From a virus (lineage: Duplodnaviria > Heunggongvirae > Uroviricota > Caudoviricetes): a stretch of 21,928 nucleotides of DNA. The stretch's first letter is position 1; the number at the start of each line of letters is the position of its first letter. The stretch lies in IMG/VR virus record IMGVR_UViG_2651869749_000015; one strand, 5' to 3'. This document shows positions 2,718-12,279 of the stretch, in pieces. Under the pieces are notes generated by a model. It had not been told where the DNA came from. It worked only from the letters and a program-made list of their open reading frames with translations, and ran no database searches. The position numbers and the translations under genes were made by a program.

Positions 2718-3816
2718 AGCTGACCTTGATGTTCCACTGAATTAAAGTACCTGGTACTTTATGAGTTAACTCATTAATTTTATCACCTTTCTTATTAGAA
2801 AGCTTGAACATACCTAAATTACTGTAAATCCAAAGGTTTCCATGTTCATTATTTAGTACTAGAGCTTTAATACTCTTACTTCCTTGACCATGTTTATCAT
2901 TGGCTGTACCGGTTACGTCTCCAATCATAGAAATTGCTATTTTTACTGCATCAGAAACAATACCAACTTTTACTTTAGAGCGCTCTTTATAACCTAAACC
3001 TATTCTCTCAAGTTCTTCGTTAACCGCAACCTTTAGATCTGGATATTTTGATTTGAGCGTACTCATAAACCATGTCTTTTGCATTACAGTTTCAGGTATA
3101 CCAACACCTTCATCATATATAGCAAGATACAGCTGGTCATGAATTACGTGACATGCAAGCCACCATCGTTTCTCATCATTATTTTTATGCGGATAGGCGT
3201 GTAAACCAACATTATTTATTGCTTCCTGAACAGCATCTGCATATGTATGTTCTGTTTCAGGTTTCATCTTGTTTTTATAAATTTCTTTCTGGATGAAATC
3301 TATAATCTCATCTCTATATTCTCCTCCTACCCCGCTAATAATGGGCAAGTTTTCAACGTTTTCGAAGACAGGTTTTAATTTTTCGCCCCGACATAAGGCG
3401 ACAAGCCCCGAGTCTCTTAAAAGCTGATTGACTTTAAAATCTGTTGAAAATAATAATCTGTACGATAAACCTTTACGAATTGAAGTTTCAACACTGGCAT
3501 AAAGTATTACTAATGCTGCCATTTTTATTGTTTTTGTATTTGTAAAATCTAAATATAATCTCTCATCAGGATTGTATTTTTTATTCCTGACGTGATTTAT
3601 CGAGTGTAGAGAGTGCGCAAAAAAATTAGGCTTATCTGGTGAATATATTGAAAACTCAGATGGAAACCGAATAAAGTTATTATCTTTTTTCTTTTGAGAT
3701 TTTTTTTGTTGACGAAACTGCGAATACTCTTTCCCTTGACGGGAAACACTTCGCTGCCATCTTTTAAAAGCCAGCCTAATTCTTACACTTTTTTCCTTAT
3801 TGGTCTTGTTTTCCAT
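2707..3816 (-). CDS. GHKL-superfamily ATPase / RsbW-SpoIIAB-like serine kinase domain protein with a basic N-terminal tail
   Basis: 369 aa. Bergerat-fold motifs in the C-terminal half: N-box QEAINNVGLHAY (residues ~197-208), G1 box IYDEGVGIP (D235-G239; confirmed as gatgaaggtgttggt on the minus strand at 3100-3114), G2-like RIGLGY, and C-terminal GTLIQWNIKV. Start ATG at 3816 is preceded by SD AGGAGA. First ~45 residues are very K/R/Q-rich. Confidence 0.75.
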   Translation of the reverse strand: MENKTNKEKSVRIRLAFKRWQRSVSRQGKEYSQFRQQKKSQKKKDNNFIRFPSEFSIYSPDKPNFFAHSLHSINHVRNKKYNPDERLYLDFTNTKTIKMAALVILYASVETSIRKGLSYRLLFSTDFKVNQLLRDSGLVALCRGEKLKPVFENVENLPIISGVGGEYRDEIIDFIQKEIYKNKMKPETEHTYADAVQEAINNVGLHAYPHKNNDEKRWWLACHVIHDQLYLAIYDEGVGIPETVMQKTWFMSTLKSKYPDLKVAVNEELERIGLGYKERSKVKVGIVSDAVKIAISMIGDVTGTANDKHGQGSKSIKALVLNNEHGNLWIYSNLGMFKLSNKKGDKINELTHKVPGTLIQWNIKVSYED

Positions 3817-3981
3817 GTGTCTCCTATCAATATGCTGTTCTTTTCATACTACGAATGATAGTACAATTAAACCAAGATTGGTATACAGACTACACGTCGT
3901 CCAGCACAAAAATTTTGTTGGTGGGTGAGATTTAAAAACTTAGTTAAATCATGTAGATACGATTGATTGAGTATAAAAATA

Positions 3982-4023
3982 CCGTTCTTAGCCATGCTCA
4001 AGAACGGCTTGGTTTTGTTGTTG
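3982..4023. terminator. Hairpin with flanking T/A runs; likely bidirectional intrinsic terminator insulating the cargo operon from the early-left operon
   Basis: CCGTTCTT-agccatgctc-AAGAACGG (8 bp stem) at 3982-4007, followed by CTTGGTTTTGTTGTTG on + and preceded by ATAAAAATA, which gives a T-run on the minus strand. Confidence 0.4.
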
Positions 4024-7572: not shown

Positions 7573-8397
7573 TCAGGCGGTGAAAGTACCAATAAAGGTT
7601 TCTACTTTGCTGTCTTTGAATTTCTCAACAAGCAGATCACGAAATTCGTTAGCCATTTCTTCCTGCACTGCTTCCAGCTGAATAATGCGCAGAACCAGTA
7701 CAGGACGATCGCCAGTGATAATGCTGAGGCGTAATTTAAATGGACGTTCTTTCAGACCTTCAAACGGAACGCATTTAAATTCAAATGCCACTGGCATAAT
7801 ATCTTTGGTCTTCGCTTCGACAGACTCCATCAGGGAGCGTTTGCCGCTGAAGTCATTATCTTCAAAATCAGCGGTCTGGTTTGCTTCAATCGTGATTTTA
7901 CGGACAGCCGCAGCCGCTTTTGTTGCCTGAATAGCGTCACCATTAGCATCAAAGCCCACAAGGTAGTCGGCCCAGTCTTCAATCCATTCTGCCAGTGACT
8001 TCTGGGAGTTACGCTCGCCATTAACAGACAACAGAGCAGAAAACGGTGCTGTCTTTTTTAGCTTGAGAGTGGCGGTGTTATCTGCGTGACCTGGTTCATC
8101 AATAGTACCCAGGTTAAGCACACTGACGGCACGCATATTATCGGCATCGATAAAGCAGCGGGTGCCTTCATCTGCAAGATCTTTAGAATAACGGGTAAAG
8201 TCATCGATGCTGGCAGTGGAAAGCGCACCACGGAAACGGAAGCGATTTAAATTAAATTTTTCCAGATCATGAATGCGGAAATTCTCAGGCAATGCCACAG
8301 CATCGGCACCAATCTTACTGATAATTTCATTAACACCCTGAGCAGAAATAAGGGCATGGATTTGATTAATTGCGGTTGCGTCTAAGTTCTGAGACAT
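7573..8397 (-). CDS. yfdQ: DUF2303-family phage protein (YfdQ-like)
   Basis: 274 aa [24 protein letters not shown]..., which I recognise as the YfdQ-type protein of KplE1/CPS-53-like prophages (from memory). It sits in the conserved position between the YfdP-like and YfdR-like genes. Confidence 0.7.
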
Positions 8398-8461
8398 AAT
8401 AAGTCCTCACTATATAAAGATATTCAGTGATGAGATAAATAATCAGTTTATTAATAACGTA

Positions 8462-8824
8462 TTAATGACCTGCTGCGCGGAGTTTTCCGTCAGGTTCACC
8501 GGCAAGAGTCAGTAATTGTCCCTGGTCTTCCTGCAGAATAGTCAGGCGACCACCGCGATTGACATACATCGGCGTTTCGGTGGTGTCTTCTTCGGAAATT
8601 TTCCCGCGGTTAGTCGGGCGAACATATGAGAGTTTGTGTTTGATTTTCACACGGTTCTCATCAAATGGTTCGATTTCCAGGTTGAGTGAGACCTTACCTT
8701 TGGTTTTCGTGTTCATCACACCTGAAGCGACTTCACTGAGAACTGCGCCGATTTTGGTTTCAAATACGCCGCCGTCCAGCTCCCCGATAAATGCCTGCAC
8801 ATCAGTACTGCGTTCGCTAGCCAT
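8462..8824 (-). CDS. yfdP: Small early-left operon protein (YfdP-like), first gene of the leftward operon
   Basis: The six-frame ORF runs to 9055, but its first 77 codons are low-complexity. A 120 aa product starts at the ATG at 8824 (MASERSTDVQAFIGELDGG...) with a strong SD GAGGAG 6 nt upstream. Confidence 0.6.
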   Translation of the reverse strand: MASERSTDVQAFIGELDGGVFETKIGAVLSEVASGVMNTKTKGKVSLNLEIEPFDENRVKIKHKLSYVRPTNRGKISEEDTTETPMYVNRGGRLTILQEDQGQLLTLAGEPDGKLRAAGH

Positions 8825-9432
8825 TTTGCTGCTCCTCATCATATCGACCCTGCAAGGTCGGTTGGTTTCTCCACAAAACAGAGAAGAACACCTGCGGTGG
8901 CAGCCGCCCGGGTGGATTGGGTTATGAGCCCGTCGTCCGGTGATGCTCTTCTCTGTTTTGTAAAAAGAGCGGTACCAGCCGGAAGCAAGTGTACAAACTG
9001 GTACCGCCAAAGCAGTGGCTGTTGTGGTGGGCTTGTCACTTAAGCGTATGGTCAACCTGACAACCCGGTGTCCTCAACGGGGAAGGAATAACCCCGCCAT
9101 ACTTACCGCCGCGCCATTTCGCGGATTACCACAACGCTGAGAGCACTTAGCCAGTTACGGCACCACACTTTGTCGCGGTTCCATAAATGCCCTCATCGTT
9201 GCACCCTGGTCTCTTCCCAGGCGTCAAACCGAATCGCCACGCTGGTTAGGCGTCTTATCAGCATCCTCATTGACTTGCACATTCCGGCTACCTGGTTTGT
9301 TTGCCCGAGCAAGGAGTGGATTGTCCCCTTTAACGTCCCCAGACCGCTAACGACGCATGTGCCATACGCCGTGTTACAACCAAATTTTGTTAGTACCTTG
9401 TTTGTAGGTCTGGAAAGAAAGATAAAATGAAG

Positions 9433-9471
9433 TTGCGCATTATGCAAGTGTTTTTATTGCGAGATATGCAA
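9433..9471 (-). promoter_or_regulatory. Putative left operator/promoter (oL-pL): two 15-bp TTGCG-N6-GCAA palindrome-like sites
   Basis: TTGCGCATTATGCAA (9433-9447) and TTGCGAGATATGCAA (9457-9471) share half-sites with TTGCGCGTTAAGCAA (10241-10255) on the other side of cI. Confidence 0.4.
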
Positions 9472-9480
9472 TTTGGTGGG

Positions 9481-9505
9481 TAATGAAAAGCCACCTTCTG
9501 GTGGC
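9481..9505 (-). terminator. Intrinsic terminator downstream of the repressor gene
   Basis: GCCACC-ttct-GGTGGC hairpin (9490-9505), followed on the minus strand by TTTTCATTA, 22 nt after the cI stop. Confidence 0.5.
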
Positions 9506-9527
9506 TAATTGATGTTGAGGTAGGGGG

Positions 9528-10220
9528 TTAATTGTGTCGCTTAAGGGTTTGTGACTGACTGATTAAGACCTTTCCAAAGACCATAAACCGATGTTCGTTT
9601 TCGCTGGTAATTCCCCATTCGCGGTAAATCTGATTATCAGAAATTACCAGCAGTTTATCAGGTATCATTTGCAGTCGTTTGACGTAAATTTTATCATCAA
9701 AACCAAATACATATATACCATCCCCATCAAACTGATTGATACTGATATCAACGAAGATGAGATCTCCTGGCTCAATGGTTGGACACATACTGTCCCCACG
9801 AACGTTGATAACTTTAATGTGATTTGCTGGTCGTCCACCAAACATCGATACAGCATTATCAGTTCTGTATTCAATGGCATGAATCACATCAATGACATCA
9901 CCGCCCTGGATAAGGCCATTTCCCGCACTGGCACTGACATCCAGCATTTCAATACGGAATACATCCTTCACCTGCGCAACATCCTCACTAATACTGTTTT
10001 TACATACAGTATTACTTTTGAGGTCTGAGGTAAAGAGATCAGCAATATCAACACCTAAGCTCCTGGCAATATTACTCAGGGCTTGTTCAGTGAATTGTTT
10101 CTGCTTACCTGTTTCGAGGCGCGAGATATTCGCCGCATCCACTCCTATTGCTTCAGCGAGATCGGCGATTTTCATGTTCTTCGCCTGGCGAAGTTGTCTG
10201 ACTCGATTTCCTATGTTCAT
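9528..10220 (-). CDS. cI: CI-type prophage repressor, LexA-like autocleavable (N-terminal HTH plus C-terminal S24 peptidase domain)
   Basis: 230 aa. HTH in MKIADLAEAIGVDAANISRLETGK; A-G cleavage-site-like SASAGNG; Ser nucleophile in VRGDSMCPT and Lys in IYVKRLQ. Divergent to cro. Confidence 0.9.
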   Translation of the reverse strand: MNIGNRVRQLRQAKNMKIADLAEAIGVDAANISRLETGKQKQFTEQALSNIARSLGVDIADLFTSDLKSNTVCKNSISEDVAQVKDVFRIEMLDVSASAGNGLIQGGDVIDVIHAIEYRTDNAVSMFGGRPANHIKVINVRGDSMCPTIEPGDLIFVDISINQFDGDGIYVFGFDDKIYVKRLQMIPDKLLVISDNQIYREWGITSENEHRFMVFGKVLISQSQTLKRHN

Positions 10221-10317
10221 GCGTTTATTACATTTCTTTATTGCGCGTTAAGCAAATCAACTTGCGCAAAATATTTGCGTGAAATAATATGCTCATCACG
10301 CAATATGTGGAGGTTAT
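10221..10317. promoter_or_regulatory. Immunity-region divergent promoter/operator (oR with pR and pRM-like elements)
   Basis: Operator-like TTGCGCGTTAAGCAA at 10241-10255 and near-palindrome CGCAAAATATTTGCG at 10265-10279. Candidate pR: TTGCGC (10262-10267), 17 nt, TAATAT (10285-10290), then SD GGAGG and the cro start. On the minus strand a TTGCTT-17 nt-TGTAAT arrangement ends 6 nt before the cI ATG, which would give a near-leaderless cI transcript. Confidence 0.45.
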
Positions 10318-10578
10318 ATGCAATCACCATTACGGAATGTGCGTAAGGCGCACGGATTTACTTTGCAGCATGTTGCTGCGGGCGTTCAGGTCAATCCAGC
10401 GACGCTGAGTCGTATTGAAAGACTGGAACAAATTCCATCTATCGAGCTTGCAGAACGTCTGGCCAATTTTTTTAAGGGAGAAATCAGCGAAATGCAGATT
10501 CTCTATCCTGCACGCTTTCAATCTAGTCAAAACCGGAATGAGTTAAAACCACAGGAACAGGAGGTAAGCCGTGGGTAA
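10318..10578 (+). CDS. cro: Cro-like HTH transcriptional regulator
   Basis: 86 aa, XRE-type HTH (FTLQHVAAGVQVNPATLSRIERLEQ). GGAGG SD. Divergent from cI across the operator region. Confidence 0.8.
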   Translation: MQSPLRNVRKAHGFTLQHVAAGVQVNPATLSRIERLEQIPSIELAERLANFFKGEISEMQILYPARFQSSQNRNELKPQEQEVSRG

Positions 10579-11122
10579 GCATCACTGGAAAGTGGAAAAA
10601 CAGCCTGAGTGGTACGTGAAAGCTGTCAGAAAAACTATCGCGGTGTTGCCGGGGGGTTACGCTGAAGCTGCTGAGTGGCTGGATGTAACAGAGAACGCTT
10701 TATTCAACCGCCTTCGTGCCGATGGCGATCAGTTTTTTCCGTTGGGATGGGCAATGGTTTTACAGCGTGCGGCTGGTACTCACCACATTGCGGATGCTGT
10801 CGCACAGTCTGCTGGTGGGGTGTTTGTATCACTTCCAGAAATTGAGGAAGTAGAGAACGCCGATATAAACCAGCGCCTGCTGGAAGTCATCGAACAGATC
10901 GGGAGTTACTCAAAGCAGATTCGTTCGGCAATCGAAGATGGGGTAGTGGAGCCACACGAGCAGACAGCAATTAATGATGAGTTGTATCTGTCAATTTCGA
11001 AGCTCCAGGAGCATGCAGCACTGGTCTACAAAATCTTCTGCGCTCCAGAAAAGAGTAACGCCCGCGAGTGTGCAGCTCCGGGCGTCGTGGCGTTTTGTGT
11101 CTGTGGAGAAACTAACGCATGA
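10571..11122 (+). CDS. CII-like regulatory protein (phage 186 CII / CP76-like family)
   Basis: 183 aa. GTG start with AGGAGG upstream, overlapping the cro stop. The pattern ...ALFNRLRADGDQFFPLGWAMVLQRAAG... resembles the 186-CII/CP76-type regulators as I recall them. Confidence 0.5.
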   Translation: MGKHHWKVEKQPEWYVKAVRKTIAVLPGGYAEAAEWLDVTENALFNRLRADGDQFFPLGWAMVLQRAAGTHHIADAVAQSAGGVFVSLPEIEEVENADINQRLLEVIEQIGSYSKQIRSAIEDGVVEPHEQTAINDELYLSISKLQEHAALVYKIFCAPEKSNARECAAPGVVAFCVCGETNA

Positions 11123-12279
11123 ACAGTTTAACGGCAAATAACCGTTTGTCGCAACAGCTGGTGGTCAGTGTCGCTGCACACCTGTTGTTACGGCATGAAT
11201 GCAGATTACCAAATCACCTGGCTGTAAGTAACCACAGAGAACTTTACCTGACTGTGGGGGGCGAGTTGTGCAGGAACTTAACCGCTGGTTTCGTGACGGA
11301 AGAGGACTTTATGTTCATGTTATTCGTTGGGAGCCAGAAACACAGCGCGTTATCTATCTTCGCAAAGACTACCCGCATGAGTGCTTTAGTCCTTTGTGGA
11401 AATTCAGGCGTGATTTTGTTGAGTGTGAAGGACCACCAGCATATTGATTCTGCAATTCCGGGACGTTACACTGTTCAGGCACCTTATAAAGCGGGTGCCG
11501 GGATTGGCGTCCTGAAATTGTCAACGGCGATGTATGACGCGCCAGCGTCTTTTTTATCGTCCGCATTTGCTCACATCCAGATTATGGTGGGCTGGGCGGG
11601 GGCACCGAAAGGTGCGCCGGTCTCCGTTGACGCCGGTTACGCCAACCCCGTCCAGTTCACCACCAGTGAAATTGGCGTTTCCGGTGGTGGAAGTTTTTCA
11701 CTGTCAACGGAGGCTGCCATCATGGCTACGATCCAAGCCCTCACTCAACCTGAAATCACCATTGACAACGGCCAGGCCGTTACCACTTCTTTGGCTGTTG
11801 CCAACTTCTTCTCCAAGCGTCACGACGATGTGCTGAAAAAGATCCGCACTCTGGATTGTTCCCCTGAGTTTTGTGCCCGCAATTTTGCGGAGACATCGAT
11901 TTCGGTAAATCAACCGAACGGTGGTACACGCAAGCTCCCTTGCTATCAAATCACACGAGACGGTTTTGCGTTTCTTGCTATGGGTTTCACGGGTAAACGT
12001 GCTGCCCGATTCAAAGAGGCATACATCAATGCCTTTAACCAGATGGAAAAACTGCTTTCAAAGCCATCCACGCTGAGCGATGCCGCAGATAACGCCAGCG
12101 TGCTTTACTCCCACCTGTCGGTAATCCACAAGGTCTGGCTGCAGCAGCTTTATCCTATGTTGGCAAAAGCTGAATCTCCGCTGGCTGTTAGCTTATATGA
12201 TTATATTAATGATGCTTCGGCGCTGGCCTGCCTCATAAATTTGTCGCTGAACCCTTCAGAGGTAAGGGGGCGCAAATGA
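11119..12279 (+). CDS. Rha-family phage regulatory protein (Rha domain in the C-terminal half; N-terminal ~200 codons of the long ORF are doubtful)
   Basis: The pRha signature ITIDNGQAVTTSLAVANFFSKRHDDVLKKIRTL...YQITRDGFAFLAMGFTGKRAARFKEAYINAFNQMEKLL starts at an internal ATG at 11722 with GGAGG 9 nt upstream. The upstream part of the 386-codon ORF has an off-frame-like composition (see findings). Confidence 0.6.
   Translation: MNSLTANNRLSQQLVVSVAAHLLLRHECRLPNHLAVSNHRELYLTVGGELCRNLTAGFVTEEDFMFMLFVGSQKHSALSIFAKTTRMSALVLCGNSGVILLSVKDHQHIDSAIPGRYTVQAPYKAGAGIGVLKLSTAMYDAPASFLSSAFAHIQIMVGWAGAPKGAPVSVDAGYANPVQFTTSEIGVSGGGSFSLSTEAAIMATIQALTQPEITIDNGQAVTTSLAVANFFSKRHDDVLKKIRTLDCSPEFCARNFAETSISVNQPNGGTRKLPCYQITRDGFAFLAMGFTGKRAARFKEAYINAFNQMEKLLSKPSTLSDAADNASVLYSHLSVIHKVWLQQLYPMLAKAESPLAVSLYDYINDASALACLINLSLNPSEVRGRK

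Follow-up and report, generated by a model that had tools for sequence, protein, structure and literature searches.

A candidate polycistronic non-coding RNA leader between pL and yfdP in an N-less lambdoid prophage

Background

In phage lambda, N and nutL are found downstream of pL/oL, and the N leader contains an RNase III site. What occupies this position in a lambdoid prophage that has no N, and how are the early-left genes reached from pL? The question is raised by the stretch of virus DNA analysed here (Caudoviricetes; IMG/VR record IMGVR_UViG_2651869749_000015; 21,928 nucleotides, referred to as the window), in which the early-left genes yfdP-yfdQ-yfdR follow about 600 bp in which no gene had been recognized. 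The initial annotation placed an untranslated leader at 8825-9432, between the repressor operators and yfdP, and this placement is correct. Its description of the leader as long, structured and lacking N was also borne out, and the leader is conserved: the minus-strand RNA folds to -230 kcal/mol (z = -3.9 relative to shuffles) and covariation is found in individual modules. Structure prediction and covariation analysis across related prophages, which had been proposed as a check, were carried out and revealed compensatory changes in each of three elements described below, an RNA designated X, a small RNA and a three-way junction.

Boundaries of the leader

The leader is bounded by the following features.

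9433-9447 and 9457-9471: oL, two repressor operators (TTGCGCATTATGCAA and TTGCGAGATATGCAA) with the exact pattern TTGCGN6GCAA
9419-9447, minus strand: putative pL, with -35 TTGCAT (9447-9442), a 17-nt spacer and -10 TATCTT (9424-9419)
9489-9506, minus strand: terminator of the cI-like gene, hairpin AGCCACCAGAAGGTGGCT followed by TTTC, from a terminator scan; just upstream of pL
8822-8860, minus strand: translation start region of yfdP, with Shine-Dalgarno sequence GAGGAG (8837-8832) and ATG (8824-8822), from sequence

The exact operator pattern occurs three times in the whole window, the third site (10241-10255) being oR. These sites flank the gene for a cI-like repressor (9528-10220, minus strand), and a cro-like gene adjoins. 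The promoter pL, as read from the DNA sequence, overlaps the operator and would start transcription near 9412. With eight of 12 consensus positions matched, it was absent from the list produced by a consensus promoter scan. At the other end of the leader, the start codon of yfdP (8824, minus strand) is that of the RefSeq annotation of an identical prophage, and the start region includes a small hairpin, CGACC-UUGCA-GGGUCG (8860-8845, minus strand).

Coding potential and the absence of N

The earlier view that 8825-9432 holds no convincing ORF was upheld, as was the absence of N. At this position, the annotations of the identical E. coli E2855 prophage, mEp460 and Stx2a_WGPS2 contain no N gene; yfdP is the first gene downstream of pL, and ORFs in the leader gave no N-like match. 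Nevertheless, ORFs of 41 to 86 codons are present, and hypothetical proteins annotated in some records are matched by two PHROG families, as would be expected if a small protein, N-like or other, had been overlooked by gene calling. This explanation is barely credible, since the ORFs sit on both strands and the PHROG matches cover the same bases in opposite orientations (phrog_33599 for a minus-strand ORF and phrog_3651 for a plus-strand ORF). The 84-codon minus-strand ORF begins inside the operator, PGAP calls no gene in this region and an arginine-rich N-like motif is found in no leader ORF. In addition, the RNA elements vary in length among homologs (94 to 122 nt for the junction, 164 to 187 nt for X), the differences not being divisible by three, and substitutions in helices are compensatory.

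The boxA-like motif CGCTCTT had been reported as missing; in fact it is present on the transcribed (minus) strand at 8965-8971. However, this is not a conserved boxA because it overlaps the 3' stem and U-run of a terminator (described below) and varies among genera, where CGCCCUU, CGCAAUU or CGCACUU replaces it. The four copies of CGCTCTT in the window are the number given by chance. In a lambda-type N/nut system, a boxB hairpin comes after a conserved boxA (CGCUCUUA); no such arrangement was found in the leader. The lambda N leader resembles the one described here in its position past pL/oL and in having a long hairpin before the first gene, but the window has neither an N gene nor boxB, and its CGCUCUU is an unconserved terminator tail.

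A DicF-related small RNA and its terminator

Two features that end at the same position were recognized in the centre of the leader.

About 8962-9136, minus strand: DicF-related small RNA of the sRNA-17 type, predicted from the RACE ends of a homolog, alignment and folding
9008-8962, minus strand: intrinsic terminator, a hairpin (9008-8969) with a 13-bp stem and a dG of -21.2 kcal/mol, followed by UCUUUUU

The terminator in the leader, the homology to Qin dicF and P1 ban, and the small RNA of the sRNA-17 type had been overlooked in the initial annotation.

sRNA-17 was identified in an mEp460-like prophage of E. coli K1 RS218 as an RNA of 193 nt, mapped by RACE and detected on Northern blots (Sun et al. 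2020, PMC7719688). Its RACE primers and supplementary alignment map to 9136-8964 of the window, on the minus strand. Both of its boundaries are present: CGUUGUGG marks the 5' end, and the GGCGGUACCAG...CUGGUACCGCUCUUUU terminator the 3' end. The two RNAs share strand, locus (between cI and yfdP) and the 5' boundary CGUUGUGG, and their 3'-terminal 66 nt (CACCACAACAGCCACUGCUUUGGCGG...CUCUUUU) are identical, as in mEp460-type loci. They differ in the central domain, which in the window is a Qin/P1-type domain (the B domain), whereas RS218 and mEp460 carry another module; the RNA of the window would therefore be a variant of sRNA-17, with a length of about 175 nt rather than 193 nt.

The B domain is closed by a stem (9135-9128/9028-9021), and single-stranded AGCCACUGCUU (9020-9010) lies between it and the terminator hairpin. 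The consensus fold of the small RNA has 42 pairs, 11 of which show compensatory changes. The terminator consists of a G+C-rich hairpin with a U-run directly 3' of it, as is characteristic of intrinsic terminators; it escaped the terminator scan because its loop exceeds 8 nt. By folding energy, it is stronger than that of DicF (-21.2 versus -15.9 kcal/mol).

The window aligns with the ydfC-dicF-dicB region of Qin in the orientation of the dicB operon, and over 107 nt (9029-9135) it shares 97% identity with the spacer that precedes dicF in K-12 Qin. Both are early operons of defective lambdoid or P22-like prophages under repressor control, and in both the small RNA lies inside a long UTR and ends at a Rho-independent terminator that must be read through to the next gene. 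In both, the terminator hairpin opens with UUUGGCGGUAyCAGUUU, and a long-range stem, the location of an RNase III cut in Qin, comes after the terminator. A 72-nt form of DicF is produced by RNase III from read-through dicBF mRNA (PMC5069750). In contrast, the 5' seed of DicF (UUUCUGGUGACG) is absent from the window in the alignment, and the 3' half of the hairpin differs. Furthermore, ydfABC precedes the UTR in Qin, where X and the three-way junction are both missing. What relates the small RNA to DicF is its locus and scaffold rather than the seed, and the published sRNA-17 and DicF fall into one family of exchangeable small-RNA scaffolds.

The Rfam model for DicF (RF00039), which scores 76.7 bits on Qin, reached its gathering score in none of 20 related loci and gave no match in 8300-9700 at E values up to 10. 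No Rfam family was found over this leader and that of mEp460, either at gathering score or at E values up to 10, and weak matches to hairpin ribozyme, miRNA and scaRNA models were attributed to chance. DicF-like targeting of ftsZ was not supported: in a crude test, the duplex with the ftsZ start region reached -26 kcal/mol versus a shuffled mean of -33 kcal/mol. Within the window, possible targets of the single-stranded stretch of the small RNA amounted to scattered 9-mers at most. The Pas/STnc100 small RNAs (Storz lab preprint) come from the late region, a different locus; the STnc100 model gave a weak match to Qin downstream of dicF (34 bits, below the gathering score of 47) and none in the window.

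In the wild-type RS218 lysogen, sRNA-17 is detectable and yfdP is almost without reads (PMC7719688). Expression of yfdP was 95-fold elevated in an sRNA-17 deletion mutant, which still contained the CmR cassette as well as the terminator hairpin (PMC7719688). Given the cassette and the retained hairpin, this increase was dropped as evidence for the terminator.

The X RNA

Upstream of the small RNA, the leader contains a larger structured element.

9189-9373, minus strand: core of X, a multi-helix RNA supported by covariation
9132-9201, minus strand: long-range stem H5, in which CAACGAUGAGGGCA (9201-9188) pairs with UGCUCUCAGCGUUG (9145-9132) and encloses a variable hairpin

From 5' to 3', X comprises H1 (9371-9351), H2 with a variable tip, single-stranded GAAUGUGCAAG, H3, single-stranded GAUUCGGUGUGAC and H4 (CCUGG-GAAGAGA-CCAGG). 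A covariance model of X (R2) scored 161.6 bits on the minus strand and gave no match on the plus strand; this is the only copy that it detected in the 21.9-kb window, with none on the pR side. Across 13 diverse aligned sequences, pairing is maintained at 97.5% for 31 pairs, with compensatory changes at 10 of them, while slid controls gave at most 2. The covariation score of 0.282 (0.122 in shuffles) was reached by none of 500 shuffles. Stem H5, which is part of the minimum-free-energy fold, overlaps the 5' end of the small RNA with its 3' strand, and homologs repeat its flanks with variable inserts.

Homologs of X were found in 79 phage records, P1 and P7 among them. X also occurs in phiV10-like phages, where a tRNA-Arg(UCU) starts directly 3' of CGUU. 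In several N-less lambdoid prophages, X lies within 5 to 10 nt of a pL-like promoter. The fragment described by Sun et al. as the promoter of sRNA-17 corresponds to 9138-9383 of the window, which is X.

A three-way junction with a copy of an initiator-tRNA anticodon arm

Between the terminator and yfdP, a further RNA element was found.

8867-8961, minus strand: three-way-junction RNA of 95 nt, from covariance model R1 and covariation
8919-8932, minus strand: copy of the tRNA-fMet anticodon arm (CGGGCUCAUAACCC), identical at 14 of 14 nt to the anticodon stem-loop of E. coli initiator tRNA-fMet

The reference for tRNA-fMet was the metZ sequence from the genome of a K-12 derivative. The junction is made up of P1, a duplex of about 20 bp; P2, tipped by GGG-CUCAUAA-CCC; and P3, a hairpin of variable length. 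Model R1 scored 106.1 bits in the sense orientation and 40.1 bits in antisense; this copy is the only one that it detected in the 21.9-kb window, the pR side included. An alignment of 20 sequences, which represent 10 or more enterobacterial genera, has 30 pairs with 97.2% pairing; compensatory changes occur at 12 of them, compared with 5.4 +/- 1.4 in shuffles (none of 500 reaching 12). A search of 100 sources returned 87 full-length matches in the sense orientation, each scoring at least 77 bits.

The junction lies directly 3' of the U-run in all 20 aligned sequences. As it precedes YfdP-family genes in most loci and RdgC-like genes in about 14, it goes with operon position and not with one gene. 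P1 has 18 to 20 continuous pairs (98.9% paired in the 20 sequences), matching the two or so turns of near-perfect helix expected of an RNase III site, and this duplex is a plausible RNase III substrate. X and the junction are two concrete RNA motifs new to Rfam; the latter reproduces the initiator-tRNA anticodon arm exactly. A duplex between the CAU loop and the start region of yfdP was considered and set aside; at -9.7 kcal/mol it is weak, and conservation of AUGAG at start codons does not extend across genera.

Organization of the leader

The stretch is probably a polycistronic non-coding RNA leader of the repressor-controlled early-left operon, similar to the dicBF UTR of Qin and the ban leader of P1, with a terminator that gates yfdPQR. 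Transcription of the minus strand would begin at pL, and the RNA made first would be X, whose structure is supported by covariation. The small RNA of about 175 nt would come next, its 5' end probably being formed by processing at the base of the long-range stem and its 3' end being set by the strong intrinsic terminator; the ends are those mapped by RACE in the close homolog from another phage. Only polymerases that read through would reach yfdP-yfdQ-yfdR, and early-left expression would thus be gated by the terminator. The read-through RNA would bear the junction right after the U-run, with P1 as a possible target of RNase III. Cleavage there would part the small RNA from the mRNA, as is the case downstream of DicF in Qin. 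The apical hairpin of the junction might, speculatively, be read by the 30S P site, MetRS or an anticodon nuclease.

Some considerations count against the leader model. Sun et al. claim for sRNA-17 an ArcA-regulated promoter of its own, inside the region that corresponds to X (PMC7719688), which would make the small RNA a separate unit. Moreover, RNase III sites need no invariant loops, so processing alone leaves the conservation of the junction unexplained.

Similar parts are found in the ban leader of P1 and P7. There, the C1-controlled promoter Pban is followed by an annotated 'dicF-like region', which is homologous to the B domain and has a terminator at its end, and the same leader contains tRNA genes and a homolog of X (77% identity) directly upstream of ban. 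However, the order is different: the P1 leader has the B domain at the front and X at the end, and the protein genes tciABC lie between them. P1 lacks the three-way junction, and X is followed by a sequence resembling the DicF seed (UUUUCUGGUGAUGAC).

The leader of the E. coli metY-rimP-nusA-infB operon contains a stable RNA, a terminator and hairpins cleaved by RNase III, followed by the first ORF. The order of parts is that proposed for the window, and initiator-tRNA sequence is involved in both. However, metY is a complete tRNA-fMet gene, whereas the window copies a 14-nt anticodon arm in an unrelated junction.

Although temperate coliphages rank among the most thoroughly studied genetic systems, the region past pL in a widespread lambdoid group, to which the inducible Stx2a and Stx2c toxin phages belong, as well as part of the P1 ban leader, is composed of covarying RNA modules without an Rfam family. 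The early-left genes, which include a homolog of the DnaA-binding YfdR, lie behind a strong terminator without a known antiterminator.

Alternative readings

Strong mosaicism is a feature of this region: 8825-9029, 9029-9135 and 9129-9372 occur independently of each other in thousands of E. coli genomes and in unrelated phages. This is what would be seen if the stretch were inert filler, that is, conserved 'linker' DNA serving as recombination joints between phage modules. Exchangeable RNA modules would give equal mosaicism, though, and the compensatory changes, the strand-specific model scores and the mapped RNA point to selection at the RNA level, making inert filler very improbable.

Two further readings assign a specific activity to part of the leader. 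The put RNA of HK022 acts in cis on the zinc-binding domain of the RNA polymerase beta' subunit and suppresses pausing and termination. It is a structured RNA just downstream of pL in a lambdoid phage without an N-type antiterminator (PMC9378689). Of the earlier interpretation along these lines, the structured, N-less leader without a conserved nut site stands, but a likeness to HK022 put found no support: models R1 and R2 gave no match at putL or putR. BLAST of putL and putR against the window returned only 8- to 11-mers expected by chance, in a comparison that is weak because putL and putR themselves share just an 8-mer. A likeness of X to putL (ACGGCG...CAUGCGUCG..AGCG) was rejected as being at chance level (a shared 9-mer). 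Put elements are about 70 nt long, have two stems and are present in both early operons, while X is at least 185 nt long, has four to five helices and is present once.

X might still be a functional analogue of put that replaces N: acting in cis, it would render RNA polymerase resistant to termination or to Rho and allow transcripts from pL to get past the terminator of the small RNA and later ones. An untranslated leader of 590 nt would otherwise be exposed to Rho. The position of X between pL and the terminator at 9008-8962 would suit this role, as would a second terminator-like site further down the early-left operon (4008-3981). In the other prophages where X lies 5 to 10 nt past a promoter, this is a strong sigma-70 promoter adjoining a cI-like gene, and the operon continues to xis/int without an N-like ORF; functional Stx2a and Stx2c phages have the same N-less layout. 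There is also a likeness between the lower stem of H1 (CGGCG/CGUCG, with a G-U pair) and the base of putL stem I. We nevertheless regard an antiterminating X as unlikely, given that neither model recognizes put and that the pR operon has no copy of X. Its location elsewhere also argues against such a role: in P1, X ends the ban leader, downstream of the dicF-like terminator; phiV10-like phages carry it in a small cassette beside a tRNA; and Qin has the dicF terminator but no X.

That the tip of the junction copies the tRNA-fMet anticodon arm suggests, speculatively, a reader that recognizes this arm. The junction could then be a translational operator or decoy, which might dock in the 30S P site over the downstream start codon, bind MetRS, or act as substrate or decoy for a tRNA-fMet-specific nuclease (for example, an enteric VapC). 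The identity over 14 of 14 nt includes the three G-C pairs typical of initiator tRNA. Across 53 distinct variants of the junction, CUCAU is kept in 52 and GGG/CCC in 45, while the stems covary, and some 45 nt separate the junction from the start codon of the first gene downstream, whether YfdP-like or RdgC-like. However, loop positions 37 and 38 vary (AA, UC or UA), seven of the 53 variants have two G-C pairs only and the Scandinavium and Providencia versions of the junction lack the motif. ARAGORN found no tRNA or tmRNA in the window and no tRNA-like gene at the junction, and the Rfam tRNA model found no tRNA. To our knowledge, there is no bacterial precedent for an mRNA that mimics tRNA-fMet, and mimicry is a doubtful explanation of the junction.

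The most far-reaching reading joins the two. X would be a new class of promoter-proximal RNA conferring on RNA polymerase resistance to termination or Rho, taking the place of N in a large group of N-less lambdoid phages and in the P1 ban operon, and the junction would be the first bacterial mRNA mimic of an initiator anticodon arm. This joint reading is an outside chance; the N-less lambdoid group that it concerns includes the Stx2a and Stx2c phages.

Setting and coding capacity of the leader

The window is a lambdoid prophage, and the 608 bases of 8825-9432, the minus-strand leader between oL/pL and yfdP, match a prophage of E. coli E2855 at 100% identity. On balance, this leader appears to be a dicF-type noncoding RNA cassette, made up of a known small RNA (a variant of sRNA-17) and two structured RNA motifs, which are absent from Rfam and for which no description was found in the searchable literature. 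Homology, covariation, strand specificity and terminator features are observed in the leader itself, while RNA ends in a close homolog (PMC7719688) and RNase III processing at Qin dicF come from the literature. The feature is real, and of more interest than the mere lack of an N gene.

Features flanking the leader
8824-6909, minus strand: yfdP, yfdQ and yfdR
9433-9447, 9457-9471 and 10241-10255: operators with the exact pattern TTGCGN6GCAA
Overlapping the operators, leftward: plausible pL (TTGCAT, 17 nt, TATCTT)
9506-9489: terminator of the cI-like gene
9528-10220, minus strand: cI-like S24 repressor gene
10318-11122, plus strand: Cro-like and YmfL/CII-like genes

The oL proposed in the initial annotation is real, since the exact operator pattern occurs only at these three sites in the window, and transcription from pL would start near 9412.

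The initial annotation described a long structured leader with no convincing ORF, no N-like gene and no boxA. The minus-strand RNA is indeed unusually stable (z = -3.9), and none of the ORFs in this stretch (41 to 86 codons, scattered over both strands) is credible. Annotations of identical or near-identical phages, mEp460 and one Stx2a phage among them, list no N gene. Indels among leader homologs have lengths that are not multiples of three. PHROGs searches matched ORFs that share one stretch of bases but run in opposite directions, a pattern typical of gene callers crossing a conserved noncoding element. One detail of that description is wrong, as the CGCTCTT motif reported as missing is present on the transcribed strand (8965-8971). 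It shares bases with a terminator's 3' stem and U-run, and other genera do not conserve it; therefore it is not a boxA.

The leader is a mosaic of three sub-segments that occur independently in BLAST searches.

Sub-segments of the leader
8825-9029: moves together with yfdP
9029-9135: present in 4786 of 5426 complete E. coli genomes
9129-9372: also in unrelated phages

In K-12, 9029-9135 maps to the ydfC-dicF interval of the Qin prophage, in the orientation of the dicB operon, and in an alignment the homology of the window covers the entire pre-dicF spacer and the start of DicF (UUUGGCGGUAyCAGUUU). The DicF 5' seed is missing from the window, and its terminator hairpin differs from that of DicF in the 3' half. 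The Rfam DicF model scores 76.7 bits on Qin and has no match on the window, and no support was found for pairing of the small RNA with ftsZ. A short motif, CYTGTCGTTAAATT, lies upstream of the B domain in Qin (L001, about 3145-3160) and upstream of the promoter-proximal RNA described below in phiV10-like loci (L278), perhaps as a further small exchangeable module or as a promoter element.

The sRNA-17-type small RNA

A 193-nt sRNA-17 was mapped by RACE and Northern blot in an mEp460-like prophage of E. coli K1 RS218 (Sun et al. 2020, PMC7719688). From the primers and supplementary alignment of that study, its 5' end, CGUUGUGG, corresponds to about 9136, and its 3' end lies at the hairpin GGCGGUACCAG...CUGGUACCGCUCUUUU, ending near 8964 on the minus strand. 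Compared with mEp460-type loci, the final 66 nt are identical in the window but the central domain differs, being the B domain of the Qin/P1 type; the phage P1 ban leader starts with an annotated 'dicF-like region', a B-domain homolog ending at a terminator. The closing stem of this domain, GUUGUGGU/ACCACAAC in the window, covaries with GUUGUGGC/GCUGCAAC in Qin, and in the consensus fold of seven diverse sequences 11 of the 42 pairs show compensatory changes. With its 13-bp stem (dG -21.2 kcal/mol), the terminator is stronger than that of DicF (-15.9); partial read-through would gate downstream expression. A 95-fold rise of yfdP in an sRNA-17 deletion mutant (PMC7719688) was discarded as evidence, as the CmR cassette was still in place and the homology arm kept the hairpin.

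The 'sRNA-17 promoter' fragment used in ArcA gel-shift assays (20 to 80 uM protein; PMC7719688) corresponds to 9138-9383, which is transcribed RNA of the promoter-proximal segment X. The published 5' end may therefore result from processing and not from transcription initiation, and we infer that the small RNA is processed at its 5' end. GUUG (9132-9135, minus strand) belongs both to the 3' strand of H5, a long-range stem of X (9145-9132), and to the 5' strand of the stem that closes the B domain (9135-9128), so that only one of the two helices can form over these four bases at a time. This overlap, a possible folding switch or processing site, is exactly where the 5' end of sRNA-17 was mapped.

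A three-way junction upstream of yfdP

The comparison drew on YfdP homologs of 31 genomes and 80 viral contigs. The architecture beside yfdP is constant in Escherichia, Salmonella phage F1055, Mangrovibacter, Enterobacter, Atlantibacter, Leclercia, Superficieibacter, Phytobacter, Kosakonia, Scandinavium and Pseudocitrobacter: a DicF-like terminator hairpin is followed directly by a long stem with two arms inside it; next come UGGAGAAACUAACC, a small hairpin, a Shine-Dalgarno sequence and the start codon. Enterobacterial yfdP prophage sequence (61 to 100% protein identity) was also found in assemblies labelled Fredinandcohnia humi (a 240-bp contig), Martelella alba and Chryseobacterium sp. (L016, L019/L020, L024), probably as contaminating contigs.

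The junction consensus (20 sequences) has 30 pairs and is 97.2% paired, with 12 compensatory pairs compared with 5.4 ± 1.4 in shuffles (0/500) and at most 5 in slid controls. Its covariance model scores 106 bits on 8961-8867 (minus strand) and 40 bits on the antisense, with no second copy in the window and no match in HK022; there were 87 full-length sense matches of at least 77 bits among 100 sources searched. The gene that follows is mostly YfdP-like, but RdgC-like in about 14 loci, so the junction is tied to operon position and not to one gene. Two PHROGs, phrog_33599 (minus-strand ORF) and phrog_3651 (plus-strand ORF), both match ORFs over the terminator and junction (8839-9043) and were probably built from spurious gene calls on conserved RNA.

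Helix P1 of the junction is almost perfectly paired over about 20 bp, the kind of substrate cut by RNase III. In Qin, the 72-nt DicF is made by RNase III from read-through transcripts, and the junction is likewise a candidate for RNase III cleavage. The tip of helix P2, CGGGCUCAUAACCC (8932-8919), has 14-nt identity with the anticodon stem-loop of E. coli initiator tRNA-fMet (sequence from metZ). Of 53 distinct junction variants, 52 retain CUCAU and 45 retain the three G-C pairs; no description of this look-alike was found in the literature searched.

The promoter-proximal RNA and possible read-through

Segment X is a second conserved structured RNA. Viral contigs were scanned for its first hairpin, and among the matches listed the invariant blocks ACGGCGUAUGGCACAUGCGUCG, AGCGGUC...GGUAGCCGGAAUGUGCAAGCC, CACCAUCGUGGCGAUUCGGUGUGAC and CCUCGGAAGAGACGAGG are separated by variable hairpins. 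The fold of 13 diverse sequences has 31 pairs (97.5% paired), ten with compensatory changes, and a covariation score of 0.282 compared with 0.122 in shuffles (0/500). The X model scores 161.6 bits on 9373-9189 (minus strand), with no plus-strand match or second copy in the window and none in HK022 or Qin.

X occurs directly downstream of a strong promoter beside a cI-like gene, heading operons that end in xis/int; in the portal-terminase interval of phiV10/TL-2011b-like podoviruses, on the opposite strand and followed by tRNA-Arg(UCU); and in the interval between trnI (tRNA-Ile2) and ban in P1 and P7. X, B-type small RNAs and tRNAs therefore form one kit of exchangeable RNA modules that recurs in several repressor-controlled phage operons. 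In P1, UUUUCUGGUGAUGAC immediately follows the X homolog, ahead of ban (L331 2690-2704, record about 71211-71225); it closely resembles the DicF 5' seed UUUCUGGUGACG and is outside the record's 'dicF-like' annotation. In two Phytobacter ursingii prophages (L021 2722-2800, L026 1186-1264), the homologous early-left leader contains a tRNA-Ile gene with the unusual anticodon AAU, shortly before the DicF-like hairpin and three-way junction.

An RNA-based antitermination mechanism like the HK022 put elements had been suggested as one possibility, but neither covariance model matches putL or putR, taken from the HK022 genome (putL numbering after PMC9378689), and BLAST gave chance-level similarity only. 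By these tests, which are weak because putL and putR are themselves barely alike in sequence, the leader would fall outside the put family. HK022 also has a put site in each early operon, whereas the window has one copy of each element. X may mediate read-through, although with low probability: it does lie between pL and a strong terminator in a phage with no N, and the leftward operon has a further terminator-like hairpin, GCCGTTCTTGAGCATGGCTAAGAACGGT then ATTTTTAT (3981-4008, minus strand), where the 3'-5' exonuclease gene ends, a second obstacle that pL transcripts would face, but the contexts in P1, phiV10 and Qin argue against such a role.

Further RNA elements downstream of the CII-like gene

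Rfam identified isrK (62 bits, 11479-11555) and C4 antisense RNA (81 bits, 11580-11667) back to back on the plus strand. Both are within a mechanical 386-codon ORF (11119-12279), which is probably over-called at its 5' end. The pair, also present in mEp460, looks like an RNA-controlled antirepressor module of the P1 immI/Gifsy-1 type.
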